From NCBI GenBank assembly GCA_035466655.1, contig DATIUS010000077.1:1-40017 (forward strand): a stretch of 40,017 bases of DNA. Direction: 5' to 3'. The position numbers and the translations under genes are program-made. Shown piece by piece: positions 4,514-34,920 of this stretch; position 1 is the stretch's first letter, and each line of letters opens with the position of its first letter. This DNA is from Candidatus Sulfomarinibacteraceae bacterium (GTDB lineage Bacteria > Chloroflexota > Limnocylindria > Limnocylindrales > CSP1-4). Below the pieces are notes generated by a model. That model saw nothing but the letters and a program-made list of their open reading frames with translations, made no database searches and was not told the origin of the DNA.

Positions 4514-4649
4514 CGGCGTTGCCCGGGGACCGCGCAACGGGGTTGCGTCCGGGCCTGGACCTGCGATACTCCCCGACGCCGGTGGCGCGGTTGCGCTCAC
4601 AGGACCGCCGCCGCCGGCCCTCCCACCCCCGCCTGCCCCGGAGAGCACG

Positions 4650-4922
4650 GTGACCTCGAACGTCGGCCAGAGCTACCCCTACACGAGCGAGCCTGAGCCC
4701 GAGCGCGCCCGGCGGATCGCAGCGCTGGTGGCGGCCCGCGACGGCCTCGCCGCGAGGCTGGGGTCGGAGACGACGCCGCTCGACGACCGCGATCGGTGGT
4801 GGGTCTGGAAGTGCCCGACGACCGGTTGCCCAGGCCTTCTCCACGCGGCCGGTTACGCCCGGGACCTGCACGCCCTCGTCGTCGTCTGCGACGGGACGTG
4901 CGCGAAGACGTTCCTGCGGTGA
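4650..4922 (+). CDS. Small Cys-rich hypothetical protein (possible zinc ribbon, 90 aa)
   Basis: This is the last 90 codons of track ORF 3147..4922, starting at GTG 4650 with GGAGAG 5 nt upstream. Third codon positions are strongly G/C, as in neighbouring genes. Contains CPTTGCP...CDGTC. Its TGA overlaps the GTG of azlC (GTGA). Confidence 0.5.
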   Translation: MTSNVGQSYPYTSEPEPERARRIAALVAARDGLAARLGSETTPLDDRDRWWVWKCPTTGCPGLLHAAGYARDLHALVVVCDGTCAKTFLR

Positions 4923-5764
4923 CGCCGGCCCCGGGACCGGCCGGGGCAGCATCGGGCGCCCGGCGGCCGGCGACGGCAGGCGAGATCCGGGCGTCGCGCC
5001 GGCGGGTCGTCGTGGATGGGCTGGGGATCATTGCGACCGCCGCCGGATTCGGCCTGGTCTACGGGCTCGCGGCGCGAGCGGCCGGGTTCTCCCCGCTCGA
5101 TGCGAGCGCGATGAGCGTCATCGTCTTCGCCGGCGCCGCCCAGTTCGCGGCGGTGGGCTACGTCCTGGGCGGCTTCTCGTGGTTCGGCGTGGTCCTCCTG
5201 ACCGCGTTCCTCAACGCGCGCCATCTCCTCTACGGGGCGGCGCTCGCGCCGTACCTCGCCGACCGGCCGCGCCCGGTCAGGGCCGTGATGGCGCACGTCC
5301 TGACCGACGAGGCGTTCGCGCTGTCGATCGCCCACTTCCGGCGGATCGGGCGGGCGGACCCGTGGGGCTACTGGTGGGCGGCCATCGTGACGACGTTCAT
5401 CCCGTGGAACGTGGCGACCTTCGTGGGCGTCGCCATCGGCGGCGAGATCCCCGACCCGCGCCGGTACGGCCTCGACGTCGTCTTCCCGGCCGCGATGGCC
5501 GGACTCGCGGTCGGGCTCATCTCCGGAAGGCGCGAGCTCGTCGCCGCCCTCGTCGGCTCGGCGATCGGCGTCGGCGTGGGCCTCGCCTGGGATCCCGCGG
5601 CCGGGATCCTTGCCGGCGGGCTGCTCGGACCCGCGGTCGGGCTCACGACGCCGTCCGGGCCGGGTGACCAGCGGCACGAGGCGGTCATCGTGTTCTCGCC
5701 GTCCATGGACGATCCGTCCGGATCCGGCCGGGAGCGTGCGTCCGACGGGAGCGACGAGGCGTGA
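4919..5764 (+). CDS. azlC: AzlC family branched-chain amino acid permease subunit
   Basis: Track ORF 4796..5764. Contains GFGLVYGLAARAAGFSPLDASAMSVIVFAGAAQFAAV, typical of AzlC, and is multi-pass hydrophobic. GTG 4919 is chosen because of the GTGA overlap with the upstream stop. Confidence 0.8.
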   Translation: MTPAPGPAGAASGARRPATAGEIRASRRRVVVDGLGIIATAAGFGLVYGLAARAAGFSPLDASAMSVIVFAGAAQFAAVGYVLGGFSWFGVVLLTAFLNARHLLYGAALAPYLADRPRPVRAVMAHVLTDEAFALSIAHFRRIGRADPWGYWWAAIVTTFIPWNVATFVGVAIGGEIPDPRRYGLDVVFPAAMAGLAVGLISGRRELVAALVGSAIGVGVGLAWDPAAGILAGGLLGPAVGLTTPSGPGDQRHEAVIVFSPSMDDPSGSGRERASDGSDEA

Positions 5765-6093
5765 CGACCGACCTCGTCTGGCTCGCCGTCCTGATGGGCG
5801 CGGTCACCTACCCATCGCGCGCCCTCCCGCTCCTCGCCCCCGGCATGCATCGGCTGCCTATCCGGGTGCAGGAGTACCTCCGCCTCGTGGGCCCAGCCGT
5901 CCTCGCGACGCTCGCCGCGGTCAACGTCATGGTCGCCCTGGACCCCGAGCGCCACCCGTCGTTCCACATCGGCATCGAGTGGCTGGCCGTCGGGGCGTGT
6001 GTCGTGCTGGTCGCCGCCCGGCGCGGGCTCCTGGTCGGGCTGGTTGCCGCCGCCGCCCTCGCCGCCCTCGCGCGAGCCTCCGGGGCCGCATGA
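5761..6093 (+). CDS. azlD: AzlD family branched-chain amino acid transport protein
   Basis: A 110-aa hydrophobic protein (MTTDLVWLAVLMGAVTYPSRALPLL...). Its GTG overlaps the azlC stop (GTGA), the canonical azlCD arrangement. Confidence 0.75.
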   Translation: MTTDLVWLAVLMGAVTYPSRALPLLAPGMHRLPIRVQEYLRLVGPAVLATLAAVNVMVALDPERHPSFHIGIEWLAVGACVVLVAARRGLLVGLVAAAALAALARASGAA

Positions 6094-6854
6094 GTATGAT
6101 CTCGCGCATGCTGCGTTCCCCCCTCCATGCAGACCTCGTCGAAATGCTCGAGGCGACTCGGGCCACAGAGCACGACCTCTTCGGTGCGCTGCCGCCGGAG
6201 CGTCGTGAGATCCCCGGTGCCGACGGCGGCTGGTCGGCGAAGGATGTGTGGGCCCACCTCGCGGCGTGGCGATCGATCGAGGCACGCCGGCTCGAGGCAG
6301 CCCTGCGAGCTGAGGGCGCCGCTCCGGGCGCACCGTCGGGCGACGATCCCGCGCCGAGCGATCCGATCGATGCGTCGAATGCCCGGCTGCAGGCCATGCA
6401 TGCCGACTGGTCGTGGGAGGCGGTCGGACGCGAGGCGGACGCAAGCGTGGATGCCCTCATCGACGCCATTCGGCGCAGCTCCCGCGAGATGCTGTGCGAA
6501 TGTGATGGGATCGTGGCAGGCCTCGGGTCGAATGGGGTGAACCACGCGATCGGCCACCTGCCCGAGATCGCCACGCAGGCGGGCAAGCTCCGGCGGGTTG
6601 ACCGGCTGGCCGCGGAGACCGAAGCGATCCTGCAACGGGACCACCTGCCGGCGCGCGACACCGGGGTGATCCTGTACAACCTCGCCTGCCATTACGCCCT
6701 CGCTGGCAAGCTCGACGAGGCGCGACGCCTCCTTCGCGATGCCTTCGGGCGGCGGCCGGACCTCATCGAGTCGGCGCCCCAGGACCCCGACCTGGTCGCC
6801 CTGGGCGATGAACTCGTGAGCCTGGCCGAACCGGACCGGCGCGACCCCGCCTGA
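6090..6854 (+). CDS. DinB/ClbS-like four-helix-bundle domain protein with TPR-like C-terminal motif
   Basis: This is the 3' part of track ORF 5610..6854, from ATG 6090, which overlaps the azlD stop (ATGA). The N-terminal region WSAKDVWAHLAAWRSIEARRLEAAL resembles DinB/ClbS-type bundles. The C-terminus ILYNLACHYALAGKLDEARRLLRDAF...DPDL is a TPR-like motif. The 160 codons upstream overlap azlC/azlD and are Arg/Pro-rich. Confidence 0.6.
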   Translation: MSMISRMLRSPLHADLVEMLEATRATEHDLFGALPPERREIPGADGGWSAKDVWAHLAAWRSIEARRLEAALRAEGAAPGAPSGDDPAPSDPIDASNARLQAMHADWSWEAVGREADASVDALIDAIRRSSREMLCECDGIVAGLGSNGVNHAIGHLPEIATQAGKLRRVDRLAAETEAILQRDHLPARDTGVILYNLACHYALAGKLDEARRLLRDAFGRRPDLIESAPQDPDLVALGDELVSLAEPDRRDPA

Positions 6855-6930: not shown

Positions 6931-8175
6931 TCAGCGAGCCCGCCAGCCGGCGACCACGGGATCGCGGCCGGTCGCGAGGAGCAGGGCCGCGAGGAGCGTC
7001 GTCCGCGGGACGATCGAGCTCACCTCGAGGTACTCGTCCGGCGAATGGTCCCGCCCGCCGATCGGTCCGAGGCCGTCGATCGAGGGGACGCCCATGCCCG
7101 ACGTCGTGTTGGCATCCGACGCGCCGCCCGTGACCACATCCTTCGTCGTGAATCCGAGTCGCGACGCGAGCGCGATGACGTGATCGGCGAGGCGCCCGGA
7201 GCGCTCGAGCTTCTCCATCGGCCGCCAGCCGGCCATGTGGTCGATCTCGACCGTGACATCGGGCACCTCGGGATCCGCCGCCAACTGGCGGACAGCCGCC
7301 ACGGCGGCATCGAGCTCGGCGCCGGTCACGCCGCGGACATCGACCTCGAGATGTGCCAGGTCAGGCACGACGTTCGGGCGGGTGCCCGACTGGAAGACCC
7401 CGACGTTCGCCGTCACCCCGGACCAGCGGCCGTTGAGGGCCTGGATCGCCTCGACCAGCCGGGCCCCGGCGAGGATCGCGTTGCGTCCCTTCTCCGGTTC
7501 CACGCCGGCGTGCGCCGCGCGGCCGTGGATCGTCAGGCGGATGTCGGCGATCCCCTTCCGGGCCGACACGAAATCGCCGTTCGCCCGGGCGCATTCGAGG
7601 ACGAAGCAGGCGTCCGACGCGGCCGCGATCTCGCGGATATGGGGCGTGGAGCTGGGCGACCCGATCTCCTCGTCCGGGTTGGCGATGTAGGTGATCCGCT
7701 CGAACGGCAGCCCCTCCCACGACCCAGCGCCGAGCTCGCGCAGGGCGGCAAGCGCGTGGACCCCGGCCAGGAGGCCGCCCTTCATGTCGGTCACGCCCGC
7801 GCCCATGGCGATCCCGGACTCGATCCGGAACGGCCGCTCGGCCGCGGTCCCGTCGGGGAAGACCGTGTCCATGTGGCCGATGAGGAGGAGCCGCGGGCCG
7901 GCGCCCACGCGCCCCTGGAACGTGCCGATGACGGTGTCGCCGTAACGGGCGGTCGAGTCCGGCCGGCGCTCCACCTCCCCGCCCAGGTCTGCAAACGCCG
8001 CCGCGACCCAGTCGGCGACCTCGTTCACGCCGGCCGGGGAGTAACTGCCGCAGTCGATGTTGCAGAGCCGCTCGAGCTCGGCGAGGAAGCGGGGGCGGGC
8101 AGCGGACACGACCGCGTCGAGCCGGAGCAGATCGTCCTGGGAAGCGCCGGCCCCGGGTCCGGAAGGGTCGTTCAC
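6931..8175 (-). CDS. M20 family metallopeptidase (carboxypeptidase G2-like)
   Basis: Track ORF 6931..8214. M20 motifs: LLLIGHMDTVF, GVTDMKGG and NPDEEIGSPSS. GTG 8175 is preferred because TACACT (8182..8187, minus) lies exactly 6 nt upstream. Confidence 0.85.
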   Translation of the reverse strand: MNDPSGPGAGASQDDLLRLDAVVSAARPRFLAELERLCNIDCGSYSPAGVNEVADWVAAAFADLGGEVERRPDSTARYGDTVIGTFQGRVGAGPRLLLIGHMDTVFPDGTAAERPFRIESGIAMGAGVTDMKGGLLAGVHALAALRELGAGSWEGLPFERITYIANPDEEIGSPSSTPHIREIAAASDACFVLECARANGDFVSARKGIADIRLTIHGRAAHAGVEPEKGRNAILAGARLVEAIQALNGRWSGVTANVGVFQSGTRPNVVPDLAHLEVDVRGVTGAELDAAVAAVRQLAADPEVPDVTVEIDHMAGWRPMEKLERSGRLADHVIALASRLGFTTKDVVTGGASDANTTSGMGVPSIDGLGPIGGRDHSPDEYLEVSSIVPRTTLLAALLLATGRDPVVAGWRAR

Positions 8176-8181
8176 CCGGCG

Positions 8182-8187
8182 AGTGTA
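8182..8187 (-). promoter_or_regulatory. Candidate -10 hexamer TACACT, 6 nt before GTG 8175 (M20 peptidase; leaderless-type)
   Basis: Reverse complement of agtgta at 8182..8187; the spacer is 8176..8181. Confidence 0.5.
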
Positions 8188-8228
8188 GGTCGTCGCGGAC
8201 CAGCCGGTCCGCAACGATCGGCCGTTGT

Positions 8229-8234
8229 TATCCT
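8229..8234 (+). promoter_or_regulatory. Candidate -10 hexamer TATCCT, 9 nt before GTG 8244 (cphA-like gene)
   Basis: Read directly. Lies in the 68-bp divergent region shared with the M20 peptidase gene. Confidence 0.4.
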
Positions 8235-8243
8235 CCCGGGATC

Positions 8244-9998
8244 GTGCGACTTGTCGAGATCCGGCTGCTCGAAGGCCCGAACGTCTACCGGCTTCGGCCG
8301 GTGGTCAAGGTCGAGGTTGCGGTCGGGCGGCGCCGGACCTGGTTCGGGCAGCGCCTGCCGGGGCGGCACGCGCTCGTGCGACTCGGGGCGTCCGTTCCGG
8401 AGCGTGACTGGCCGGAGGCCGTGGCGACGATCGCCGGCTGGGGCAGGCGGCTCCGGCGTGCGCACGGTGAGGGCGTCGGCGGCGTGCGGGTCCACCGCTC
8501 GTCCGATCCCGGCCACTGGGTCCTGACCTGGCCGTGGTCCGGGGCGGAGCGGGCGCGCCTGATCGCTGAAGCGGCCGTTGCCCTCGCCGACCGGTCGGCG
8601 ACGCCGGCCCCGCGGGCCCGCCTGACGGGCACCCAGGAGCGGCTCCTGGCGTCCTGGACGGAACGCATCCGGCGGGCGTCGGCGACGCCACCGACGTGGA
8701 TTCGGGACGGCGATCGGCGGATCCCGGTCGTGTCGATCTCGGGAACGAACGGGAAGTCGACCACCGCCCGCCTCCTCACCCGGATCCTGCTGCGGGCGGG
8801 GCGGCGCGTCGGGACGACGACCTCGGACGGCGTCCTCATCGACGAGCGCATGGTGGATCCCGGCGACTGGACCGGACCCGGTGGTGCGCACGAGATCCTC
8901 CGTCGGTCGGACGTCGACGTCGCCGTGCTGGAGACCGCGCGCGGCGGGCTCGTGCTGCGCGGAATCGGCTACGAGTCAAACGAGGTGAGCATCCTCACCA
9001 ACGTGACCGCAGACCACCTGGACGTCCAGGGGATCCACACGCTCCCCGAGCTGGCCGAGGTCAAGTCGACCGTCTGCCGGATCACGAAGCTGGCCGGCTC
9101 GGTGATCCTCAACGCGGACGACCCGCTCGTCCGGGCGATGGCACGCGTTGTCCGGGCGCAGGTCGCCTGGTTCACGCTCGAGGGCGACGCTTCCGCCACG
9201 GTCCGGCGCCACCTCGACCGCCGCGGTCGCGCCTACCTGGTCCGCCGGGGCGACCTCGGGGAGGCCGAGGGCGACCGATGGACCCCGATCGTGGCGGTCC
9301 GCGAGATCCCGATCACGCTCGCCGGGCTCGCCCGTCACAACGTCGCGAACGCGCTCGCGGCCGCGGGCGGCGCCCGAGCCCTCGGCGCCACGATCGAGGA
9401 GGTCCGGGCCGGGCTCATCGACTTCCGCCCGATCGCCGAGGAGTCACCCGGCCGGCTCAACGTCTACCGCAGCGGTGCCCGCGTGGCGATCGTCGACTTC
9501 GCCCACAACGTGGCCGGGTTGGCGGCGCTCCTCGACGTCGCCGGCGCGATCGCCGCAGGGGCCGGCGGCCGGGTGACGCCGATCACGGTGATCATCGGCA
9601 CGGCCGGCGACCGTCCCGACGACACGCTCCGGGGGATGGGCGCGATCGCCGCGGCGGGGGCCCAGCGCGTCGCGGTCAAGGAGACGCTCAGCTACCTGCG
9701 GGGTCGATCCCGCGAATCTGTCGTCGGGGAGCTGATCGCCGGCGCGAGGGAGGCCGGCTGGACGACCGAGATCCCGGTCTACGAGAACGAGACGGCGGCG
9801 CTGCGCGCGGAGCTCAACGGCGCCGGAGGCGGCGTCAGCGGCGCCCGGCCGGACGGGGCGCGAATCGTGGTCCTCCTGTGCCACGAGGACCGGACCGGCG
9901 TGTTCGCCCTGCTCGCCGATCTCGGCTTCCGGCCTGTCCAGTCCACCGCGGACCTGGTGGGCCTGGTGCCGCGCCTCGAGGATCGACCGCGGCGCTGA
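8244..9998 (+). CDS. Cyanophycin synthetase-like protein with CphA N-domain and Mur-ligase-like M domain only (no ATP-grasp domain)
   Basis: 584 aa, GTG start. The N-terminus MRLVEIRLLEGPNVYRLRPVVKVEV parallels LRILETRILRGPNYWSRAPVIRMLV of the neighbouring CphA. From about residue 158 it is collinear with the CphA M domain: ISGTNGKSTT P-loop (nt 8742..8762), ETARGG, NVTADHLD, ILNADDP, DFAHN and GTAGDRPDD. Confidence 0.85.
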   Translation: MRLVEIRLLEGPNVYRLRPVVKVEVAVGRRRTWFGQRLPGRHALVRLGASVPERDWPEAVATIAGWGRRLRRAHGEGVGGVRVHRSSDPGHWVLTWPWSGAERARLIAEAAVALADRSATPAPRARLTGTQERLLASWTERIRRASATPPTWIRDGDRRIPVVSISGTNGKSTTARLLTRILLRAGRRVGTTTSDGVLIDERMVDPGDWTGPGGAHEILRRSDVDVAVLETARGGLVLRGIGYESNEVSILTNVTADHLDVQGIHTLPELAEVKSTVCRITKLAGSVILNADDPLVRAMARVVRAQVAWFTLEGDASATVRRHLDRRGRAYLVRRGDLGEAEGDRWTPIVAVREIPITLAGLARHNVANALAAAGGARALGATIEEVRAGLIDFRPIAEESPGRLNVYRSGARVAIVDFAHNVAGLAALLDVAGAIAAGAGGRVTPITVIIGTAGDRPDDTLRGMGAIAAAGAQRVAVKETLSYLRGRSRESVVGELIAGAREAGWTTEIPVYENETAALRAELNGAGGGVSGARPDGARIVVLLCHEDRTGVFALLADLGFRPVQSTADLVGLVPRLEDRPRR

Positions 9999-10090
9999 AA
10001 CGCGTTGCGCCGCGAGGGGCGGCCGCGCATGATGTCCGCCAGCGCCGGACGGCCGGCGATCGAGAGGGATGGAGGACCTGCCCCGTGGAA

Positions 10091-10183
10091 ATGGCGATCG
10101 GCGTCGCGCTGGTGGTGATCTCGGCCGCGCTCATCTTCGGCATCGTCCGGGTCGTCAGCGGGAACATGGGCATCGGTCGCTGA
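10091..10183 (+). CDS. Possible 30-aa hydrophobic micropeptide
   Basis: Terminal 30 codons of track ORF 8696..10183: MAIGVALVVISAALIFGIVRVVSGNMGIGR. One predicted TM helix; nearly all third codon positions are G/C. GGAGG lies about 15 nt upstream, which is far. Weak call. Confidence 0.25.
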   Translation: MAIGVALVVISAALIFGIVRVVSGNMGIGR

Positions 10184-10289
10184 CCGACGGCTCCGCCCCT
10201 GCCCGGTCGGGAGCTCGACACGAAAGCCCTCACTCCAGCCAGATTGTCAGGGCCTGATCGCCTCTCGCGGCAGGGCGACCCGGCAGGTC

Positions 10290-13127
10290 CTATCCGACCG
10301 GCGCCTCGAGTTCGCCGGGATCCGCGAACGCGGTAGTCCCGAGGCCGTGGCCGGCGGCGGCCATCGATTCACGGTAGACGGCGATCGCGTCGTCGACGCA
10401 CATGACGAGGAGGTCGCCCGGGCTGGCGCGGCGCAGCGCCGTGCGGGCGGCGGTCAGCTCGTCGAGGATCTTGTCGGCCCGCGTGGTGCGGGCACCGGCC
10501 CCACGGGCGCGACGAATCCCCTCGAGCACGTGCGCGGCGGCCTCGGCCGGGACGCGGCCGCGCAGGTTCCGATCCTCGCGGACGATGATCTCGTCGAATG
10601 CCCCGGCCGCGAGCGCGCCGTAGTCGCGCATGTCCTCGTCGCGCCGGTCGCCCGGGACGCCGATCACACCGATGGCGCGCCCCGAGCGGACCCCGTTGTC
10701 GGTCATCATCCGGTTCACGAAGTCGGCCAGTGCCCGCATCCCGTCGACGTTGTGGCAGTAGTCGATGACGACGCGAACGCCGCCGACCTCCAGCAGGTTC
10801 AGACGGCCGGGCGCCTGGAAGAACGACGTCGTGAACGTTCGGAGGCCCTGCCGGATGTCGTGGAGGTGGGCCCCGGCCGCCCAGGCCGCCGCCGCCGCGG
10901 CCAGCGCGTTGGCGACGTTCATCCGGGCCTTGCCCCCGAACGTGGCGGGGACGAGGTGCGTGTACAGCACCGGCATCGTCCGGGGTCCGTGGCGAAGGAC
11001 GATCTGGTCGCCCTCCGGCGTGTGCCTGAGGACAAAGGCGGCGCCGCCCCGGCCGCAGTGCCCGTCCACCCGGTCGAAGCCGGGCTCTCCCTTGTCCGTT
11101 TCCATCGAGAAGTAGGTGACCGAGCCGTCGCACTGCTGGTTCATCCGGGCGACATTGGGGTCGTCCGCATTCAGGATCGCCGAGCCCGTCCGCGGCACCG
11201 CCTCGACGAGGACGCCCTTCACGTCCGCCAGCTGGCGGAGCGTGTCGATGCCGCCCAGTCCGAGGTGATCCCCGGTGACGTTCGTCACGACCGCGACGTC
11301 GTTCCGGTCGTAGCCGAGGCCCTCGCGGAGGATCCCGCCCCGGGCCACCTCGAAGACGGCGGTGTCCACCGTCGGGTTCTGGAGGATCATCCGGGCCGAC
11401 TTCGGGCCGGACATGTCGCCCCGCTTGATCATCCGCCCGTCGACGACGATGCCGTCGGTCGACGTCATCCCGACTCGCCGGCCCATCAGCTTGAGGATGT
11501 GGGCGATCATCCGGACCGTCGTGGTCTTGCCGTTCGTGCCGGTGACCGCGATGATCGGGATGCGGGACGGGGCGCCGGGCGGGAAGAGCAGGTCGATCAC
11601 GGGCCGCGCGACGTACTGCGGCTCGCCCTCGGTCGGATGGGTGTGCATCCGGAACCCGGGGGCGGCGTTCACCTCGACGATCGCCCCGCCGGTCTCGCGC
11701 ACCGGAACAGTGATGTCCGGGCAGATGAAGTCGATTCCCGCGACGTCGAGGCCGACGACCCGGGCGGCCATCTCGGCGATCTCGACGTTGTCCGGGTGCG
11801 CCTCGAGCGTCCGGTCGATCGACGTCCCGCCGGTGGACATGTTGCCGGTCAGGGCGAGCTTGACCCGTGTCCCGACCGGCGGCACCGCATCGGGCTCGAA
11901 GCCCTGACTCCGGGCGAGCTCGATCGCCGCGTCGTCCAGCTTGATCTTCGTCAGGACCTTCTCGTGGCCGATCCCGCGCCGCGGATCGCTGTTCGTCTGG
12001 TCGACGAGCTGGCGGACCGTGAGGACCCCGTCGCCGACCACCGAGGCCGGGACCCGCTCCGCGATCGCCGCCACCTCCCCGCCGATCACGAGGCAGCGGT
12101 AGTCGTTGCCGTGGATGTACGTCTCCACCACGACCTCACCGGAACGCGTCTCGCGAAGGGCGCCCGGCCAGGCGGCCCGGACGTCGTCCTCGCTGCGAAG
12201 GTCCAGGTGGACGCCCCGGCCGTGGTTGCCGTCGAGCGGTTTGATCACGCACGGGAAGCCGAGCCGGCGGGCCGCCGCAACGGCATCGTCGACGGTCTCG
12301 ACGACGTCCGCCCTCGGCACCGGGAGGCCAGCCGAATCGAGGAGACGGTTGGTCAGGTTCTTGTCGCTCGCGATGTCCACAGCGATGCCCGACGTCCGCG
12401 ACGTCATCGTCGCCCGGATCCGCTGCTGGTGAACCCCCTGGCCGAGCTGGACGAGGGAGTGGCGATCAAGCCGAATGAACGGGATGTCCCGCGACGCGGC
12501 CTCGTCGATGATCGCCTGGGTCGACGGCCCGAACGCCTGGCGTTCGGCAAGCCGGATGAGCGTCTCGAGCTCGGCGAGGAAGTCGAGATCCGGGTCGCTC
12601 GCCGGGTCGACGAGGTGGTTGACGATCCGGACGGCAAGCCTGCCGGCCTCGATGCCGACGGTCTCCTCGCGAAACTCGTAGATGACGTTGTACTGGCCGG
12701 GCGTGCCCGCGCCCCGGGTCTTGCCGTGTCTGACGTCCGTGCCGGCCAGGTTCTGGAGCTCGAGGGCGATGTGCTCGGCGACGTGGCCGGCCCACGTCCC
12801 GTCGCGGAGCCGCGTCAGGAAGCCCCCCCGCCGGTTGAGCGAGCAGGCGTGATCCTCGAGCGACGGCAGCCACTCGATGAGCCCGTCGACGAAACCCGCG
12901 ATGGTGTTCGATGGGAACGCCTCGAGCGAGCCGAGGTCGACGAGCATCCGGATGACCGGCGCGCGCGACCAGTAGTTCGGGCCACGCAGGATCCGCGTTT
13001 CCAGGATGCGGAGGTCGGGCGCGGGCCGGTCGGGTCCCCCGGACGCCGCGGCCGCCGAGGCCGTGCCAGCCGCCGCCGGTCGCGATCGCTTCGCCCGGAC
13101 TGTCTTCTGCGCAGCGGTCTCGGCCAC
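10290..13127 (-). CDS. cphA: Cyanophycin synthetase (full N + ATP-grasp + Mur-ligase-like architecture)
   Basis: Track ORF 10290..13211. Contains the N domain (LRILETRILRGPNYWS), an ATP-grasp region (VIKPLDGNHGRGV, IVEVNAAPGFRMH) and the M domain (VTGTNGKTTT, NVTGDHLG, ILNADDP, DYCHN, GVPGDRRDE). The start is set at GTG 13127 with GGGAGGG 7 nt upstream, which avoids overlapping cphB. Confidence 0.92.
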   Translation of the reverse strand: MAETAAQKTVRAKRSRPAAAGTASAAAASGGPDRPAPDLRILETRILRGPNYWSRAPVIRMLVDLGSLEAFPSNTIAGFVDGLIEWLPSLEDHACSLNRRGGFLTRLRDGTWAGHVAEHIALELQNLAGTDVRHGKTRGAGTPGQYNVIYEFREETVGIEAGRLAVRIVNHLVDPASDPDLDFLAELETLIRLAERQAFGPSTQAIIDEAASRDIPFIRLDRHSLVQLGQGVHQQRIRATMTSRTSGIAVDIASDKNLTNRLLDSAGLPVPRADVVETVDDAVAAARRLGFPCVIKPLDGNHGRGVHLDLRSEDDVRAAWPGALRETRSGEVVVETYIHGNDYRCLVIGGEVAAIAERVPASVVGDGVLTVRQLVDQTNSDPRRGIGHEKVLTKIKLDDAAIELARSQGFEPDAVPPVGTRVKLALTGNMSTGGTSIDRTLEAHPDNVEIAEMAARVVGLDVAGIDFICPDITVPVRETGGAIVEVNAAPGFRMHTHPTEGEPQYVARPVIDLLFPPGAPSRIPIIAVTGTNGKTTTVRMIAHILKLMGRRVGMTSTDGIVVDGRMIKRGDMSGPKSARMILQNPTVDTAVFEVARGGILREGLGYDRNDVAVVTNVTGDHLGLGGIDTLRQLADVKGVLVEAVPRTGSAILNADDPNVARMNQQCDGSVTYFSMETDKGEPGFDRVDGHCGRGGAAFVLRHTPEGDQIVLRHGPRTMPVLYTHLVPATFGGKARMNVANALAAAAAAWAAGAHLHDIRQGLRTFTTSFFQAPGRLNLLEVGGVRVVIDYCHNVDGMRALADFVNRMMTDNGVRSGRAIGVIGVPGDRRDEDMRDYGALAAGAFDEIIVREDRNLRGRVPAEAAAHVLEGIRRARGAGARTTRADKILDELTAARTALRRASPGDLLVMCVDDAIAVYRESMAAAGHGLGTTAFADPGELEAPVG

Positions 13128-13185: not shown

Positions 13186-14025
13186 CTAGCTGGAGGCGGC
13201 GGCCTCGCCACCGGGCAGGGCCTTGAGATTCGGTCCGGCGATCCGGTGTCGACGGCGGAGATCGAACCGATAGCCGGCCGGCAGGGAGTGCAGGACGACG
13301 CCGCTGAGCATGACCGGGCGATGGCCGCGCACCTCCCAGGCGTCGGTCTCGGCCGCGGAACCGTCCACGACCGTCACGCTGCCGCGCCCGATCACCTCGA
13401 GGACCTGGTCCGGACCGACCACGCCGGCCGTGTCCTCGTCCACGCCCAGACCGAGAAGGCTCGGGTTCTGGGCGATCAGGCTGAGGAGCCGGCCGAGCCG
13501 GTTTCGCTGCTGGAAGTGCTGGTCGACGATGACGCCGGGCAGGACCCCGAGGCCCGCTGCGATCGCGGCCATCCGGTGCTTCGGGGTGGCGCCGCTCGCC
13601 CCGAACGCGATCATGTGGCTGGACATGGCCGAGGCACCGGCGGACGTGCCGGCGATCACCGCGCCGTGCCGGAACCGCTCGAGGACGGCGTCGGCGAGCC
13701 GCGTGCCGCCGAGCGTCGACGACAGCCGGAGCTGGTTGCCGCCGGTCAGGAAGATCCCCGTCGCGTCGCCGACGGCGCGGGCGAAGGTCTCGTCGTTGGC
13801 CTGGGCCCGCGTCATCGCGTGGAGCGGGCGGACGGTGCGGACGCCGAGCTCGGTGAAGATCTCGCGGTAGCGCTCACCGGCCTCGTGCCCCAGCGACGAC
13901 GCCGTTGAGATCACCACGACGGTCGCCGCCTCGCCGCCGGCGAGCGCGACGAAGCGGTTCAGGATGATCCGATCCCGGATCTTGTCCTCCGCGCCGCCGA
14001 TGACGATGACCGTTCCGTCGCTCAT
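13186..14025 (-). CDS. cphB: Cyanophycinase (peptidase S51)
   Basis: Track ORF 13186..14106; the conserved protein starts MSDGTVIVIGGAEDK at ATG 14025. Motifs: FLTGGNQ, IAGTSAGASAM (Ser nucleophile context) and VDQHF. Lies directly upstream of cphA. Confidence 0.9.
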   Translation of the reverse strand: MSDGTVIVIGGAEDKIRDRIILNRFVALAGGEAATVVVISTASSLGHEAGERYREIFTELGVRTVRPLHAMTRAQANDETFARAVGDATGIFLTGGNQLRLSSTLGGTRLADAVLERFRHGAVIAGTSAGASAMSSHMIAFGASGATPKHRMAAIAAGLGVLPGVIVDQHFQQRNRLGRLLSLIAQNPSLLGLGVDEDTAGVVGPDQVLEVIGRGSVTVVDGSAAETDAWEVRGHRPVMLSGVVLHSLPAGYRFDLRRRHRIAGPNLKALPGGEAAASS

Positions 14026-14036
14026 GGTTGCGCGGG

Positions 14037-14042
14037 AGTATA
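14037..14042 (-). promoter_or_regulatory. Candidate -10 hexamer TATACT, 11 nt before ATG 14025 (cphB)
   Basis: Reverse complement of agtata at 14037..14042. Suggests an internal promoter for cphB-cphA downstream of the MFS gene. Confidence 0.4.
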
Positions 14043-14154
14043 CCGGCGGGCGTCCTCGATCAGGGCCGGCCAGGGACCTGCCCCTGGCCGCGAACGCCCG
14101 GCCCATGCGGCGGCCGGGGACGACGCGGCCCCGTCGCGGGCGAGCGGTTCGCGA

Positions 14155-15480
14155 TTACGCCGCGGCCGGGGCCGGCGCGCGCTGCGACCTCGGCTCCACG
14201 ACCGGCCGGAGGAACAGCGCACCGAGGACGTAGTAGATGACCGCCAGGCCGAGGGCGAAGCGCGGGCCGCTGCCGTAACCCATGGCCGCGTTGGTCGCAT
14301 CCATGAGCAGGCCGCCGGTCATCACCGCGAAGATCCCGGCAGTGGCGGTCGCCACGTTGCTGATCCCCATGTAGCGGCCGGACGAGGCCTTCGGGATGAT
14401 GTCGGTCATGAGCGCCCAGTCGACCGCCAGGAACATGCCCGATCCGGCGCCGAAGAGCCCGGCGCCGACGATCGCGACGGGGATCGCCGGCGCCGCCGCG
14501 ACCACGGCCATCCCGAGACCCCCGAGGCCGCAGGCGGCGTAGATCACGGGCTTCCGCCCGATCCGGTCAGACAGGCGAGCCGCCGGGATGACCGACACGA
14601 CGTTGCCGAGCACCGTCGCGCCGAGCAGGGCGATGTTCGGCAGGCCCGTCTCCTCCTGGGCGAGGGCGAACGTCTGGGCCAGGTAGAAGAGGGCGAAGTT
14701 GACCAGCATGTTGGCGCCCATGAGGACGAACCAGCGCGAGCCCACGAGCCACAGGAACGAGCGCTGAGCGAGGATGTCCAGGCCCCACGCCTCGCGCCCG
14801 ATGGCGATCCACGACTTGCCCTCGCGCGGCCGTGCCGTGCGGCCCTCGTTCACCCTCCAGACGACCGACAGCATCGTGACGACCTCGAGGGCGCCGAGGG
14901 CCATCGTCCCGAGAAAGAAGTTGTCGGTCGCGACCGCGAGGGCGCCGATCCCGAACCCGGCGACGTTCCCGAGGACCTGGAACAGGCCGACGAGCGCGGA
15001 CGCAAGGCCGACCTGCTTCGCCGGGACGAGGTCCGGGACGTAGCCCTGGAAGGGGCCCTGGGCGAAGTTCGCGCTGACCTGGAGGAGGACCATGAACGCG
15101 GCGATCGCGAGCACCGTATTGGAGGAGGCGATCCCGAGCAGGAAGACGATGTCGAGGATCGAGCCGATGAAGATGTACGGCTTGCGGCGGCCCCAGCGGC
15201 TCATCGTGTAGTCGGAGATCGAGCCGACGGTCGGCTGGACGACGGCGGCGATGAACGCACCGGCGACGTTGAGGAGGAAGAGGGTCGTCCCCTCCGAGCC
15301 GGGCGAGTGGAGTGGCCCCGTCTCGTACTGGATCCGGCCCGACAGGATCTGGGTCAGCCCGATGAAGATCGACGACAGGCCGAGCCAGTAGAGCGACAGA
15401 CGGACCAGCTGGGTCTTGGGCAGGTCGTCCACCGGGCGGTCTCCCGGATCCGCGGCGGCTGCCGCATGCGCGAACTCCAC
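14155..15480 (-). CDS. MFS transporter (GPH/MFS_2-like)
   Basis: Track ORF 14155..15543. Multi-pass hydrophobic, with the loop PTVGSISDYTMSRWGRRKPYIFIGS, typical of GPH-like MFS carriers. GTG 15480 is chosen because GGAGAGGAGG lies 8 nt upstream. Confidence 0.85.
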   Translation of the reverse strand: MEFAHAAAAADPGDRPVDDLPKTQLVRLSLYWLGLSSIFIGLTQILSGRIQYETGPLHSPGSEGTTLFLLNVAGAFIAAVVQPTVGSISDYTMSRWGRRKPYIFIGSILDIVFLLGIASSNTVLAIAAFMVLLQVSANFAQGPFQGYVPDLVPAKQVGLASALVGLFQVLGNVAGFGIGALAVATDNFFLGTMALGALEVVTMLSVVWRVNEGRTARPREGKSWIAIGREAWGLDILAQRSFLWLVGSRWFVLMGANMLVNFALFYLAQTFALAQEETGLPNIALLGATVLGNVVSVIPAARLSDRIGRKPVIYAACGLGGLGMAVVAAAPAIPVAIVGAGLFGAGSGMFLAVDWALMTDIIPKASSGRYMGISNVATATAGIFAVMTGGLLMDATNAAMGYGSGPRFALGLAVIYYVLGALFLRPVVEPRSQRAPAPAAA

Positions 15481-15539
15481 GTCCCGTGCCTCCTCTCCAT
15501 TCCGACTGTTGCACGAGAGACGCCGGGCCGCCGCGACCG

Positions 15540-16253
15540 TCACACGGCAGTCGGGCGGCCTCCCGGATCGAGCGTGACCGTGGTCCGACTGGCGACCATT
15601 CGCCGGTCCGCCGCGGTCGGGGCGACGAACCGGAAGAGCGATCGGTCGAGCGAGTAGATCCCCGTGCCGGCGATCCCGATCCGACCGAGGCGGAACGTGA
15701 AGACGGGGTTCTCCCGGTTCCCGGCGTAGTGGTGCGCGGCACCGTCCGCGGTCAGGATGGCGAGGTTCGCCTGGCCGCCGAACGTGTCGTGCAGGGCGCC
15801 GAGGATGTGCGGGACGGATTCACCCTCACGCCACTCGTCCTCGAGCCAGCGGGCGCCCACCTCGGTGTCCGCCCGGCCGTGGATTCGGCCCTGGTCACGA
15901 TACCGAGCGCGCCAGCCGCGATGGAGGGTCAGGTCCCCGTTGTGGCTGAAGCTGTACCGGCCCGCCGGGTCGTCGAACGGCTGCGTGTCGGCCATGCCCA
16001 GGGTCGAGAGCCGCGACGGCCGGCGGAGGTGGACGAGCACGGAGGTCGTCTCCACCCGGCCGACGCGGTCATGCGCGGGGTCGTCACGAAAGGCTCGGAC
16101 GTCGCGATGGCTCGCCAGGCGCCCCTCGGTGCCGATCCAGGACGCACCCCACCCGAACCCGGCGATGCCGAACCGCTCGAGGCGCTCGGTGAAGTCCCAG
16201 AGCTCGTCCAGCCGGAAGGGTTCCGCCGCCCGGGCGACGAAGTGCTCGCACAT
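15540..16253 (-). CDS. Class II glutamine amidotransferase-like Ntn hydrolase (YafJ/EgtC-like)
   Basis: 237 aa beginning MCEHF (Cys2 as the putative N-terminal nucleophile), with FSHNGDL and GTGIYSLD segments typical of class II GATase folds. The stop lies 60 nt upstream of the MFS start. Confidence 0.8.
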   Translation of the reverse strand: MCEHFVARAAEPFRLDELWDFTERLERFGIAGFGWGASWIGTEGRLASHRDVRAFRDDPAHDRVGRVETTSVLVHLRRPSRLSTLGMADTQPFDDPAGRYSFSHNGDLTLHRGWRARYRDQGRIHGRADTEVGARWLEDEWREGESVPHILGALHDTFGGQANLAILTADGAAHHYAGNRENPVFTFRLGRIGIAGTGIYSLDRSLFRFVAPTAADRRMVASRTTVTLDPGGRPTAV

Positions 16254-16307: not shown

Positions 16308-16733
16308 CTACGCGAGGTCTGGGAGGACGATGAGGCCCTCGGCGGCCGCGGCGTCGCGGAGCCGTCCGTCGAAGGCGATGAACGCGGTGGGACCCTCGGC
16401 GACCCGCAGCGCCGAAGCGAGATGGATCGCATCGCCCGCGCGCAGCCCGTGCCGATCCGACAGGTCACCGGCTTCGCGGACCAGCGACTCATCAACCTCG
16501 ACCGCGACGACGCTCGTCCACAGCGCATCGATCAGGGCTCGGGTCGCCGGGAGCGCGAGTCCGCCCAATCGTCGGGATCGTGCCGCGGCAGCCACCGCCG
16601 AGCGGAGCTCGGCGTAGCCGATCAGCGACGCGTACCGGTCGCCGACATGCTCCCAGAGGCCGTCGACAGCGTCCGTCCCGGGTTCTGGCACCAACAGCTT
16701 CGCGAATGCCGAAGTATCGACATAGGCGATCAA
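16308..16733 (-). CDS. vapC: PIN-domain ribonuclease toxin VapC
   Basis: 141 aa. MIAYVDTSAF (first acidic residue) and GDAIHLASA are typical of PIN domains. There is a 4-nt overlap with the upstream antitoxin gene. Confidence 0.85.
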   Translation of the reverse strand: MIAYVDTSAFAKLLVPEPGTDAVDGLWEHVGDRYASLIGYAELRSAVAAAARSRRLGGLALPATRALIDALWTSVVAVEVDESLVREAGDLSDRHGLRAGDAIHLASALRVAEGPTAFIAFDGRLRDAAAAEGLIVLPDLA

Positions 16734-17065
16734 AGGCGCACCTCCCGCAGGAGGTCGGACAGCCCGCCATCGATCTCAACCTTCGGAATGTCGGCGACGC
16801 GCATTGGAGGACGCGTGGGCAGCCGGACCTTGCCCTGCGCCGCCAGCTCGAGCATGTGCCTCGAATACCGCATCGGCACGATCGTCGCAATGACGCGGCC
16901 GTGTTCCGTGACCGTGATCGCGGCGCCGGCCTTCACCTGCTCGAGGTACCGCGACAGGTGATCGCGCAGCTCGCGGATCCCGACGCTGGCGTCCGGCGCG
17001 ATGCCGCTCTCCAGCGCCGCTGTGGCCTCTTTCAACCTCTTTGTGGCGCTTTTCTTCTCGCTCAT
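16730..17065 (-). CDS. Type II antitoxin (Phd/YefM-like) paired with VapC
   Basis: 111 aa. The core IRELRDHLSRYLEQVKAGAAITVTEHGRVIATIVP is the Phd/YefM-type fold signature. TATAAT lies 6 nt upstream of the ATG. Confidence 0.8.
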   Translation of the reverse strand: MSEKKSATKRLKEATAALESGIAPDASVGIRELRDHLSRYLEQVKAGAAITVTEHGRVIATIVPMRYSRHMLELAAQGKVRLPTRPPMRVADIPKVEIDGGLSDLLREVRL

Positions 17066-17088: not shown

Positions 17089-20000
17089 TTACCCGCCGAT
17101 CACCCAGTGCGCCTCGCGCGCGTCCGGTCCCGGTCGGAGAACCAGGCCGCGGTACCCGGCGACGAACCCGGCCCCGAGCAGGGCGACACGGCAGGGCGAC
17201 TCCCCGACCGGCACGCCGTCCACCTTCGTGACCACCAGCTCGCGGTCACGGCCAGCGCCGATCAGGCCGCGGAGCGCCGGGAGCGCCGTGGCGGCCACGG
17301 CCGGGTCGTCGAAGGCCGGCAGGGTCTGGAGCGTCCGGCCGCCACGCTCGACGTAGATCGCGGGCACGCCGTCCACGAGGACCACGGAGGCGCCGGCGGC
17401 GCGGGGGAGTGGGCGCCGGTCGTCGCCGCCGCGACGGGGCCACGGGATCGCGGCGCCGTAGGGGTTCGCCGGGTCAGCCGCCGCCAGGAGGTGGACCATC
17501 GGCCCCTCGCCGTGACGGTTCGCTGCGTCGCGTGCCGCCCGGAGCCGGTCGATGGCCCCGATGAGGGCGAACTGGGCGGCGCCGAGGCCCTCGACGAAGT
17601 ACCCGCGACGGATCCGGCCGGCCTCCTCGAGCGCACGGAGGACCGGGTAGATCCCGGCGAAGCCGCCCTCGAGCCCCTCGGCCATCACGGCCTCGCGGAC
17701 GAGCACGCCGTACCGGTCGAGGAGCGCGAGGGCGGCGGCGTGGAGCCGCTCCGTGGGGCTGCTTCCGGCTTGCGCGGGGTCGACGAGCGACCACCGGCCG
17801 GCGGCCTCGGGCGGCCCGAAGGCCGTCAGCCGGCCGGGTCGCGGCCGGGCGGTCGAGCGCGACGGGCGTCGCCAGCGGAGCGCGCGGAGCGGTGCGAACG
17901 TGTCGTTCGTGACCTCGCCGGCCCAGGCGAGGTCCCAGAGCGCGTCGAGCACCTCGCGGTCCGTGCCGCCCCCTGCGGAGGCGTAGATCTCGCGGTAGAA
18001 CGAAGCGCCGCGACGGGCAAGGTGCGCCCGGATCGCGTCGTGGCGCGGACCCGCCGGCCGGTCCATCCCGTCGGTGGGCATCGCCGGCCGGAGCGCCTCC
18101 CGGCCGGGCCGATGGAGCACGATCCGCCCGTCGTCCCTGCCGAGGCTGCCGCGGCCGACCCAGCCGACCTCGCCAAGCGCCCCGAGCTCGTCGAGCAGGC
18201 GGGGCTGATAGCCGGGGACGCGCGCCGGAAGTACCTCCCGCTCGAGGACGGAGGCCGGGATCGCGAGGCCGGACAGCTGGTCGACGACCTCGGCGAGCCG
18301 CTCCAGCGCGGCGCTGCCGCGCAGCGACGGCGGCGTTTCCCCGACCGCGGCGACGCCGTGCCAGGCCGGCAGGAACCGCCCCATTGCGGCGGGCTCCACC
18401 GGTTCGACCTCCCGGCGGAGCCGTGCCAACGACCGGCGGCGGAGGAGCCGGAGCACCTCCGGATCGCACCATTCGCGCTCGGTGCCGTCCGGGCGGAACT
18501 CGCCACGCACGAGCGATCCACGCTCGCCCAGCCGCTCGAGGGCATCGGCGACGGCCGCGACCGGCAGGCCCCAGCGGCGGGCCGGCTCGGCCGGCAGGAA
18601 CGGCCCATGCGTACGCGCCCAGCGCGCGAGCAGGCTCTCCAGCGCCGCCGAGACCGGGGCGAGGAACGCGTCGGGGACGCCCTGCGGCATCGACGCCCCG
18701 ATGCCATCCCGGTACCGCCCGGCATCTTCGATCGCGATCCAGCGTTCCTCGCCACCGATCCGGGCCGCGGCGGCCCGCCGGCTGGCTCGCAGCTCCGCGA
18801 GCCAGCCGTCGGCGACCTCCAGTCCGCCTTCGATGCGGGCCGCCGCTTCATCCGTCGACAGGTCGCCCAGGCGGCGGAGCAGATCGTGGACCGCGTCGAT
18901 CGACGCTGCCCGTCGGTCGTCAGCGAGTGACTGGAGCGAGAGCTCGAGGTCTGCCAGCGCCGACCCGTCGAGCAGTTCGCGCAGCTCCTCCTGGCCCAAC
19001 AGCTCCCGCAGGAGGTCCCGATCCAGCGCCAGGGCGCCGGCTCGGCGCTCCGCGATCGGGGTGTCACCCTCGTACATGTAGGCGGCGACGTAGTCGAACA
19101 GGAGCGACGCGGCGAACGGTGAGGCCCTCGCCGTCTCGACGGCGTGGACGGCGATCTCCCGCCGCTCGACGGCCCCGAGCACCTCCCGCAGCGCACCGAT
19201 GTCGAAGACGTCGGACAGGCATTCGCGGTAGGTCTCGACGAGGATCGGGAAGCTGCCGTAGCGCGCCGCGACCGCGAGCAGGTCCGCCGAGCGCTGGCGC
19301 TGCTGCCAGAGCGGCGTCCGCGTCCCGGGCCGGCGGCGCGGCAGGAGGAGCGCCCGGCCTGCGTTCTCGCGAAAGCGCGACGCGAAGAGGGCCGAGCCGC
19401 CGACGGTCTCGACCACGAGATCCTCCACTTCGTCCGCCGCCGGGAAGAGGAGCGCCTCGATCTCTGCGAGCCGTCCGGGGGCGCCTTCGCCCTCGCCCTC
19501 GGGGAGCCGGATCGCAAACCCGTCATCGGACCAGATCGTCTGCACCTCGAGGCCAAGGCGATCTCGGAGCCGCTCCTCGACGGCCAGCGTCCAGGGCGCG
19601 TGGATCCGCCCCCCGAACGGCGTCAGGAGGACCAGGCGCCAGTCCCCGAGCTCGTCGCGGAACCGCTCGACCACGATCCGCCGGTCGGTCGGCAGGGAGC
19701 CCGCGACGTCACGCTGCTCCTCGAGGTAGGCGAGGAGGTTTCCGACGGCGAGCTCGTCCAGGTCGTGGTTGGCCCGGAGACGGTCAGCGGCGCGGGCCCG
19801 GCCCTTCGGACCGCCGGCGAGATCGCCCTCGACCTCGCGGACGAACGCGCCGATGGCCCGCCCCAGCTCGATCGGGCGACCGATCGCGTCGCCCTTCCAG
19901 AACGGCAGCTTGCCCGGGACCCCCGGCGCGGGCTCCACGATGACGCGGTCCGGCGTGATGTCGAGGATCCGCCAGGAGCTCGCGCCGAGCACGATCACGT

Positions 20001-21708: not shown

Positions 21709-21717
21709 GGGCCGCCC

Positions 21718-21723
21718 AGTGTA
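21718..21723 (-). promoter_or_regulatory. Candidate -10 hexamer TACACT, 9 nt before GTG 21708 (lhr)
   Basis: Reverse complement of agtgta at 21718..21723. Confidence 0.4.
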
Positions 21724-21989
21724 GCGCGCTCGCCGAAATTCGACCAGATGTTCTGTTTGAACCCGCGAGGTCGCGCCGCGCCGCGGTGCCGCGATCCGGG
21801 TTGGGCCGACCGGCCCGTCCAGGGCATGCCGTTGGTCCCCCTTCACCCGGCCAGGGTGACCCGGTCTTGGGGCCATCGGGCAGGTCGCCCCGGGTTGACA
21901 GATGCGCCATCTTGACATCGCAACGACCAGCACCACCTCACCCAGATGCCGTCCCAGCTGGTCGGCGGCGCAAGCGAAGGGAAGCACTG

Positions 21990-34862: not shown

Positions 34863-34920
34863 GGCCGACAGTGTGGGCAACGGACGCGACCGACGTCCAA
34901 TGCCGCGACCATCAGAGCAC

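Follow-up and report, generated by a model that had tools for sequence, protein, structure and literature searches.

A cyanophycin synthetase paralogue without an ATP-grasp domain, encoded beside cphA1 and cphB in Chloroflexota and Myxococcota: a candidate accessory side-chain ligase

The window analysed here, a 40,017-nt stretch of contig DATIUS010000077.1 from Candidatus Sulfomarinibacteraceae bacterium (assembly GCA_035466655.1; Chloroflexota, Limnocylindria), has a G+C content of 70–75% and carries a gene for a shortened paralogue of cyanophycin synthetase (CphA). The gene adjoins those for the synthesis and breakdown of cyanophycin, a nitrogen-storage polymer. Its product, referred to below as the N+M protein, has the N-terminal (N) domain of CphA as well as its Mur-ligase-like M domain, and is without the ATP-grasp (G) domain. 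We interpret it as a putative autonomous, ATP-dependent ligase that would assist the full-length synthetase, CphA1, by acting on the side chains of cyanophycin or poly-Asp chains, a reading that we consider about evenly poised between right and wrong. The family and the presumed chemistry are known ones, but the protein has a different architecture and belongs to a separate clade.

Domain architecture

The layout of N and M without G had been proposed from the nucleotide sequence alone, and was borne out by the open reading frame (ORF) call, domain scans, BLASTP and structure prediction (Table 1). A Pfam scan of the 584-residue protein matched Mur_ligase_M (residues 165–375, 68.3 bits, cut-off 24) and Mur_ligase_C (residues 403–527, 32.5 bits, cut-off 28.4), both above their gathering scores as in members of the Mur ligase superfamily, and found no ATP-grasp or RimK domain. 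The same scan of the neighbouring CphA ORF matched RimK, ATP-grasp_5, CPSase_L_D2 and others. In BLASTP, residues 159–554 are collinear with residues 550–946 of the neighbouring CphA (38% identity, E 9e-68), and the alignment passes from the N domain straight to the M domain, so that the three-domain N-G-M layout is absent. All of the motif pairs originally quoted for the two proteins are present (GTNGKS/GTNGKT, ETARGG/EVARGG, NVTADHLD/NVTGDHLG, ILNADDP in both, DFAHN/DYCHN, GDRPDD/GDRRDE). The NCBIfam model for cyanophycin synthetase, TIGR02068, gives 358.5 bits over model positions 475–838 only, and its whole-protein equivalog cut-off of 850 bits is not reached.

Among proteins of solved structure, the closest relatives by sequence are the CphA1 enzymes of Synechocystis (7LG5, 238 bits) and Trichodesmium (7WAC), followed by MurE at 49–68 bits. 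An AlphaFold model of the full-length protein (predicted local distance difference test score, pLDDT, 83; predicted template-modelling score, pTM, 0.82) was likewise matched best by CphA1 in a structure comparison with the PDB (7LGJ, 7LG5 and 7LGQ; about 890 columns, 888 for 7LGJ, query-normalised template-modelling score, TM, 0.72), and next by MurE and other Mur ligases. An alignment of this length means that the N and M domains superpose together across the gap left by G, which suggests that the predicted protein keeps the N-M domain arrangement of CphA1.

An ordinary Mur-ligase enzyme of another pathway (MurE/MurT, FolC or PgsB), lying near cphA by chance, would share the middle and C-terminal Mur-ligase domains and the ATP-dependent activation of a carboxylate. 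It would also fit the weak matches to MurE, MurC, MurF, FolC, MurT and PgsB models and the source annotations 'Mur ligase family protein' and 'UDP-N-acetylmuramyl tripeptide synthase'. The scores are far lower than such an enzyme would give, however: the best MurE model reaches 107 bits (cut-offs 257–373), FolC 40, MurT 31 and PgsB 23, none of the NCBIfam cut-offs for MurE, MurC, MurD, MurF, FolC, MurT or PgsB is attained, and all of these models fall below the CphA model. The N-terminal domain has a CphA-specific fold and not that of the UDP-binding domain of MurE, and the gene context is one of cyanophycin rather than cell-wall genes, a linkage to cphA1 and cphB that recurs in Chloroflexota (Limnocylindria and Thermomicrobiales) and in Myxococcota (see below). 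This explanation is thus largely refuted and very improbable; by family scores and by both sequence and structure matches in the PDB the nearest relatives are, as first proposed, the M domains of CphA and not MurE, MurT or FolC.

The M domain and its ligase site

Residues were mapped to SuCphA1/TeCphA1 numbering by alignment to the PDB sequences and by a 92-sequence alignment, with roles taken from PMC9427784 and PMC9262961. The P-loop Lys (CphA1 K499) corresponds to K171 of the window protein, the Mg ligands T500, T522 and E558 to S172, S194 and E230, and the lid ATP contacts R731 and H748 to R404 and H421. The pair D585/H586, whose change inactivates the M domain (PMC9262961), corresponds to D257/H258. 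These eight positions are invariant, or show only T/S exchange, in 23 of 23 orthologues and in both of the other groups of short proteins described below. The N+M protein therefore has all the residues expected of an active CphA1-type M domain (P-loop Lys, Mg ligands, Asp-His pair, lid Arg and His), in agreement with the earlier view that its ligase motifs are intact, and its ligase site is apparently competent as judged from sequence.

Conservation extends beyond the catalytic positions. When 65 M-domain columns were defined as at least 90% conserved among 17 full-length CphA1s, 59, 57 and 52 of them were found to be kept in the three short groups, the highest figure being that of the Limnocylindria group, and all changes were conservative. 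At the position of SuCphA1 E607, a cyanophycin contact, 22 of 23 orthologues have Arg, and the other short groups mostly Arg, Lys or His. The short groups also have in common the motif GD(W/Y)xGPxGA where CphA1 reads GDxTGPxSA.

The N-terminal domain

The original statement that residues 1–155 match the N domain of the neighbouring CphA by eye was too strong as it stood. BLASTP aligns only residues 1–40 (with residues 67–106 of CphA; 30% identity, E 0.001), and Pfam gave no match of any kind, PF18921 (Cyanophycin_syn) included, in the N-terminal 159 residues even at E<=10, so that profile-profile and structure comparisons were needed to judge the claim. Both upheld the homology. With hhalign, the N region of the Limnocylindria group aligned over its whole length to that of the second short group (probability 99.2%, E 7e-20), which in turn aligned to the CphA1 N domain over 121 columns (probability 96.7%, E 3e-10); directly compared with CphA1, the Limnocylindria region aligned over its first 71 columns (probability 96.2%). 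With Foldseek, an AlphaFold model of the N region alone (pLDDT 87) retrieved CphA1 structures from the PDB at ranks 1–8 (E 9e-5 to 1e-3, TM 0.54–0.60) and CphA2 at ranks 9–11, with noise thereafter. Residues 1–157 are thus identified, from profiles and predicted fold, as a divergent CphA N domain, in spite of the silence of PF18921 and the lack of the Cx19HxxEH metallopeptidase motif. That motif is present in 83% of CphA1s and makes most CphA1 N domains primer-generating (PMC9262961).

The N domain of the window protein is strongly basic, with 28 Arg in 158 residues, a net charge of +14 and an isoelectric point of 11.8. The mean net charge over 23 orthologues is +10, compared with -6 in the CphA N domain of the same genome and -6 and -11 in the two other short groups. 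Two motifs are invariant in the lineage, GRRR (residues 28–31) and HRSSDPGHW (84–92). An Arg-rich insertion after GRRR (residues 30–41) is the only low-confidence part of the N-domain model.

A purely non-catalytic or regulatory partner, binding cyanophycin or CphA1 and concerned with granule organisation, chain-length control or the sensing of ATP or Arg, would be compatible with several of these features: the N domain tethers the polymer in CphA1 (PMC9262961), so basic a domain could bind an acidic surface or polymer, and a conserved 30-residue membrane peptide is encoded next to the N+M gene. Against this stands the invariance of the ATP, Mg and catalytic residues over three deeply divergent groups, as well as the example of CphA2, in which an unused M domain has decayed with loss of P-loop and lid (PMC9427784, PMC10273328). 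The idea of a pure polymer-binding partner, raised as an alternative at the outset, is accordingly disfavoured, and we judge it improbable.

Linkage to cphA1 and cphB

Linkage to cphA in other genomes had been set beforehand as a test. Across 81 Limnocylindria loci, the divergent upstream M20 peptidase gene was found in 76, the G domain of a convergent downstream cphA in 72 and cphB in 64, while the MFS transporter and glutamine amidotransferase (GATase)-like genes further out were found in 50 and 48, respectively, many loci being cut by contig ends. Of the nine loci that lack cphA, six run out within about 2.4 kb of the N+M gene, and in the other three (L023, L064 and L074) the flank measures 4 kb or more; with the six set aside, an adjacent cphA1 is found in 72 of 75 informative loci. 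L064 (N+M gene at 4576..6336) has kept the M20, N+M, MFS and GATase genes and has lost cphA and cphB from between them, showing that the N+M gene can persist without an adjacent cphA. One metagenome-assembled genome (MAG), MFD09368.bin.2.48, holds two copies of the whole M20/N+M/cphA/cphB/MFS/GATase block on separate contigs (L018 and L020), with N+M proteins 69% and 71% identical to that of the window.

Outside the Limnocylindria, the Thermomicrobiales locus L083 shows the same convergent arrangement of N+M and cphA-cphB, and L082 has no cphA nearby. In both, an Rce1-like (CPBP) intramembrane protease gene precedes the N+M gene on the same strand (9013..9978 in L082, 8898..9863 in L083), and a ParB-like gene lies upstream. 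The Myxococcota loci L084 and L085 have a different order, amidohydrolase (IadA-like)-cphB-cphA1-[N+M], all on one strand, cphA1 and the N+M gene being separated by just a few bases; L086 has the same order with a broken or mis-assembled cphA. A random sample of metagenome contigs yielded about 15 usable short-form loci among the matches listed, which were mostly full-length cphA1 genes and tandem cphA pairs. Among these matches, six short genes lie directly downstream of cphA1 (L087–L090, L092 and L093, unassigned contigs that share the Myxococcota-type N-terminal motif), two are convergent with cphA-cphB (L097 and L127), and one, L105, has no cphA on the single flank present. The six downstream genes follow the Myxococcota order, (iadA-like)-cphB-cphA1-[N+M], in those contigs that extend far enough upstream. 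Overall, 12 of 14 informative loci outside the window-type group show linkage to cphA1/cphB among the matches listed. The linkage test is thus passed, both Chloroflexota and Myxococcota showing the association, each phylum with a gene order of its own.

The tandem full-length cphA pairs in the metagenome sample (L099, L102, L104, L111, L112, L115, L119 and L120) differ from the N+M arrangement: a complete cphA1 stands second, after a copy in which the M domain is weak or truncated (about 100 bits).

The partner synthetases bear on a further explanation, in which the N+M protein would join Arg to free Asp or to very short segments, making beta-Asp-Arg or primers that speed the start of CphA1. 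The first ligations of CphA1 are very slow and primers are limiting (PMC9262961), and most of the Myxococcota-type partners are without the Cys of the primer-generating Cx19HxxEH site: six of seven (L085, L087, L089, L090, L092 and L093) have HxxEH without the Cys, and L084 is without the whole motif. The Chloroflexota partners, including the CphA1 of the window, keep the complete motif, which was found by pattern in 64 of the 81 Limnocylindria loci and also in L083, L097 and L127. As the Cys is missing in the Myxococcota-type partners only, primer supply would be no general explanation, and a polymer-anchoring N domain conserved under purifying selection would be superfluous for small substrates. 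We give this idea a low probability.

Distribution, phylogeny and selection

Orthologues of the window protein with full-length coverage form more than 100 clusters at 90% identity and are 69–87% identical to it; the named organisms are Chloroflexota / Candidatus Limnocylindrales MAGs. A scan of one genome per species gave 386 relatives, of which the best 80 all belong to the Limnocylindria lineage (58–83% identical). Pairwise ratios of non-synonymous to synonymous substitution (dN/dS) against seven orthologues are 0.13–0.22 and alike in the N and M parts, so the gene is under purifying selection in both domains. A functionless, decaying remnant of a cphA duplication could have lost, as here, one third of the parental architecture, but such a remnant would hardly keep an unbroken reading frame in 80 species-level genomes, invariant catalytic residues and dN/dS values of this order in an old clade distinct from CphA1. 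The conservation data refute this idea, and we attach almost no probability to it.

An exhaustive search of 1.84 billion representatives (50% identity) gave 1183 matches at E<=1e-30. The best 150 of the 1183 were sorted by layout, N+M being called for complete proteins of 500–700 residues with the P-loop at residue 120–235: 67 have the N+M layout, 18 are full-length CphA, and 65, mostly fragments, are unclassified. Judged by sequence, the architecture is widespread and occurs in no fewer than 67 clusters at 50% identity. By their N-termini, three groups of short proteins can be told apart. Group 1 is the window type, from Limnocylindria. In group 2 the N-terminus reads, for example, MELVEIRDLDGPNLF or LVELRVLDGPNLYFPRP, and the named sources are Thermomicrobiales and other Chloroflexota. 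Group 3 begins MxLxDSRRLTGPNL and comes, where named, mostly from Myxococcota (Kofleriaceae, Labilithrix, Myxococcales). Database labels for these proteins are 'Mur ligase family protein', 'cyanophycin synthetase' and 'UDP-N-acetylmuramyl tripeptide synthase'.

In a neighbour-joining tree of the M domain (92 sequences, 391 columns, 100 bootstraps), full-length CphA1s were separated from all short forms in 99 of 100 replicates. Group 1 was recovered in 100, group 3 in 99, and groups 1 and 2 jointly in 81. On this evidence the short form is old and forms a clade distinct from CphA1. The G-less family can be delineated as proteins of about 530–620 residues in which a CphA N-fold directly precedes a CphA-like M domain, with the P-loop at about residue 150–230 and a position on the short-form side of the split; the window protein answers to this description within the Limnocylindria subgroup. 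The impression that the gene had been cleanly excised from the neighbouring cphA did not survive, as 38% identity together with the CphA1/short-form split rules out a recent local duplication or excision. The N+M form may even be ancestral, CphA1 having gained its ATP-grasp domain later, inserted between N and M.

Part of the family is already catalogued under another name. Proteins with DUF4938 (PF16292) followed by Mur_ligase_M and Mur_ligase_C have the same layout at about 570 residues; the relative P0187 matches DUF4938 at residues 4–273 (E 5e-29), placing part of the short-form family in that entry, and the group 3 member P0395 has a precomputed match. The window protein itself gives no Pfam match to PF16292 (threshold 32 bits), and DUF4938 is a family without known function.

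Relation to known systems

CphA1 (Synechocystis sp. UTEX2470 7LG5/7LGJ, Trichodesmium 7WAC/7WAE; TIGR02068) is the nearest known system. The N+M protein has in common with it the N fold, all ATP, Mg and catalytic residues of the M domain, 59 of 65 conserved columns and the predicted N-M arrangement, has it as best PDB match in sequence and structure, and is encoded beside a CphA1 and a cyanophycinase. It differs in the missing G domain and Cx19HxxEH motif, the lack of a PF18921 match, a TIGR02068 score below the cut-off, an M domain in a separate clade and Arg at the E607-equivalent position. CphA2 (8FXH/8FXI) is also a reduced member of the family with a non-catalytic N domain, and provides the second-best match to the N fold, but its truncation is the opposite one, as had been pointed out from the start: in CphA2 the G domain is retained and it is the M domain that is truncated and inactive, P-loop and lid having been lost (PMC9427784, PMC10273328), whereas the N+M protein has no G and a complete M.

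No description of the N+M architecture was found in the literature outside subscription journals under CphA3, DUF4938, truncated or G-less forms, or Myxococcota clusters, and no characterised enzyme of this kind was found in the searchable literature, in line with the original statement. A cyanophycin gene survey published in 2023 makes no mention of forms that are truncated or without G (PMC10206079). The only hint of shortened forms found is in Tetrasphaera MAGs, where a 'longer' and a 'shorter' cphA copy occur in series, with the architecture left undescribed (PMC10687191).

Proposed function

Since both N and M are retained, the N+M protein keeps the complete machinery of the M half-reaction and nothing of that for backbone elongation. 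Without a G domain it is not expected to extend the Asp backbone, and would for this reason serve as an accessory to the adjacent CphA1. In CphA1 the substrate of the M reaction sits between the N domain and the M core (PMC9427784), the N domain acts as a polymer tether and a hydrophobic N-domain loop packs against the M domain (PMC9262961). By analogy, the N domain and M core of the N+M protein would form a groove binding a cyanophycin or poly-Asp chain with an undecorated Asp side chain. The P-loop site would take ATP-Mg, the side-chain carboxylate would be phosphorylated, and the alpha-amino group of the incoming amino acid, most likely L-Arg, would displace the phosphate to give an isopeptide bond. 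The enzyme might in this way complete or restore side-chain decoration apart from elongation, or act on chain ends or short segments. The acceptor, the added amino acid and the physiological role are the parts of this scheme that we infer; decoration or repair of poly-Asp or cyanophycin, or the use of another amino acid, had been suggested in the same spirit at the outset.

Several points weigh against this interpretation. The case for it is made from sequence, a structural model and gene context rather than from biochemistry. The partner CphA1 has an intact M domain of its own, which leaves the need for a second M activity unexplained. The M domain of CphA1 acts on the C-terminal Asp only, and an enzyme modifying internal residues would be a novelty. 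The N domain, basic and without HxxEH, differs strongly in sequence from that of CphA1; being basic here and acidic in the other short groups, it may bind a different polymer in different groups. The Arg that replaces E607 in nearly all orthologues is a non-conservative change at a polymer contact. Finally, in Chloroflexota the gene and cphA face each other and do not share a transcript, and four loci (L023, L064, L074 and L082) have the N+M gene without an adjacent cphA1.

The same chemistry could also serve another partner, Asp carboxylates being coupled to Lys, ornithine, citrulline, Glu (giving a mixed polymer) or ammonia. In the last case the ammonia would be supplied by the amidotransferase-like protein, for a conversion of Asp to Asn resembling the amidation by MurT/GatD, an established carboxylate amidation on a Mur-ligase fold (named in PMC11915815). 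That another, divergent M domain should stand next to a CphA1 already equipped with one invites the thought of a different specificity, as do the GD(W/Y)xGPxGA motif and the R/K/H residues at the E607 position, both unlike CphA1, and a class-II GATase-like gene is part of the Limnocylindria cluster. On the other hand, the CphA1-conserved M columns that are kept include lid columns which in Mur ligases bind the incoming amino acid; the GATase-like gene is missing from the Myxococcota and Thermomicrobiales clusters; its product is of class II whereas the MurT partner is of the class-I CobQ type; and the MurT model score is low (see above). A different partner seems rather unlikely.

An elaboration of the side-chain ligase interpretation brings in the M20 peptidase. 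The two enzymes might form a cycle that loads and unloads Arg on a persistent poly-Asp backbone without remaking the backbone. The carboxypeptidase-like M20 enzyme would strip Arg, which is held by its alpha-amino group with the alpha-carboxylate free; the N+M ligase would re-attach Arg or another amino acid using ATP; and the backbone, polyanionic once depleted of Arg, would be held by the basic N domain (+14). We regard such a cycle as improbable.

The gene cluster in the window

The genes of the cluster and their coordinates are given in Table 1, in the order M20 peptidase (-), N+M (+), a 30-residue ORF (+), cphA (-), cphB (-), MFS transporter (-) and GATase-like protein (-). As stated at the outset, the N+M gene faces a complete cphA: the two converge, and cphB (TIGR02069) lies just beyond. 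The cphA1 frame is open to 13211, the likely start being the GTG at 13127, and its translation has the whole Cx19HxxEH motif (C...HVAEH). That the N+M protein complements a dead M domain in its partner was considered and rejected, as GTNGKT, EVARGG, GDHLG, PGRLN and DYCHN are intact in the window CphA. The MFS and GATase-like genes are upstream of cphB-cphA in the direction of transcription and overlap each other by 4 nt.

The M20 gene is divergently transcribed from the N+M gene. Its annotated TTG start at 8214 lies only 29 nt from the N+M start, and the true start is probably further in (the product is 427 residues long here and 414 in L001). The cluster has no iadA, iaaA or cphZ-type dipeptidase gene, which makes the M20 enzyme a candidate for the beta-Asp-Arg dipeptidase of this lineage; going by its sequence, it may have that function or may release Arg from side chains. 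The 30-residue ORF between the stops of the N+M gene and cphA keeps its position and strand in 43 of 81 Limnocylindria loci (42–80% identity), is a gene call in L001, and has the look of a genuine micro-protein of the cluster with a single membrane helix. A promoter and terminator scan of 8000..10400 found no promoter-like site and one terminator-like hairpin, between the M20 and N+M genes. No tRNA genes were found near the cluster. Elsewhere in the window are a small ORF pair known as toxin/antitoxin-like from its layout alone, an Lhr-type large helicase and a three-domain LigD, ordinary genes without relation to the N+M finding.

Table 1. Features of the N+M gene, its cluster and other genes of the window.
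Feature	Coordinates	Strand	Remarks
M20 metallopeptidase, glutamate-carboxypeptidase-like	6931..8214	-	Pfam Peptidase_M20 and M20_dimer; NF004788 281 bits, below its cut-off
N+M gene, CphA paralogue without ATP-grasp (G) domain	8244..9998	+	GTG start; 584 residues
N domain, residues 1–157	8244..8714	+	CphA N-domain fold (predicted)
M-domain core, residues 158 to ~395	8715..9428	+	Pfam Mur_ligase_M; P-loop, Mg ligands, catalytic pair
P-loop, G167–T173	8742..8762	+	within M-domain core
M-domain lid (Mur-ligase C-terminal domain), residues ~396–584	9429..9998	+	Pfam Mur_ligase_C; R404, H421
Conserved hydrophobic small ORF, 30 residues	10092..10183	+	MAIGVALVVISAALIFGIVRVVSGNMGIGR; between stops of N+M gene and cphA
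cphA1, complete (N+G+M)	10290..13127	-	TIGR02068 1142 bits (cut-off 850); PF18921, ATP-grasp, Mur_ligase_M/C
cphB, cyanophycinase	13186..14106	-	TIGR02069 266 bits (cut-off 126.6); Peptidase_S51
MFS transporter	14155..15543	-	Pfam MFS_1
Class-II glutamine-amidotransferase-like protein	15540..16253	-	Pfam GATase_6; EgtC-like, weak
Small ORF pair, toxin/antitoxin-like layout	16308..17065	-	outside cluster
Lhr-type large helicase	17089..21987	-	outside cluster; 1632-residue ORF
LigD, three-domain (phosphoesterase-ligase-primase/polymerase)	32133..34880	-	outside cluster

Conclusions

Cyanophycin metabolism as now described comprises CphA1, CphA2, cyanophycinase and dipeptidases. A conserved, selected and apparently competent gene in the cphA1/cphB clusters of two phyla points to a further step, and the N+M gene probably marks one that has gone unrecognised; side-chain completion, remodelling, the use of an alternative amino acid and priming are the candidates. 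As a natural stand-alone M domain, the protein would open the Arg-ligation half-reaction to direct testing, and could help in tailoring cyanophycin-like polymers of industrial interest. Its architecture also has a bearing on the evolutionary assembly of the three-domain CphA1.

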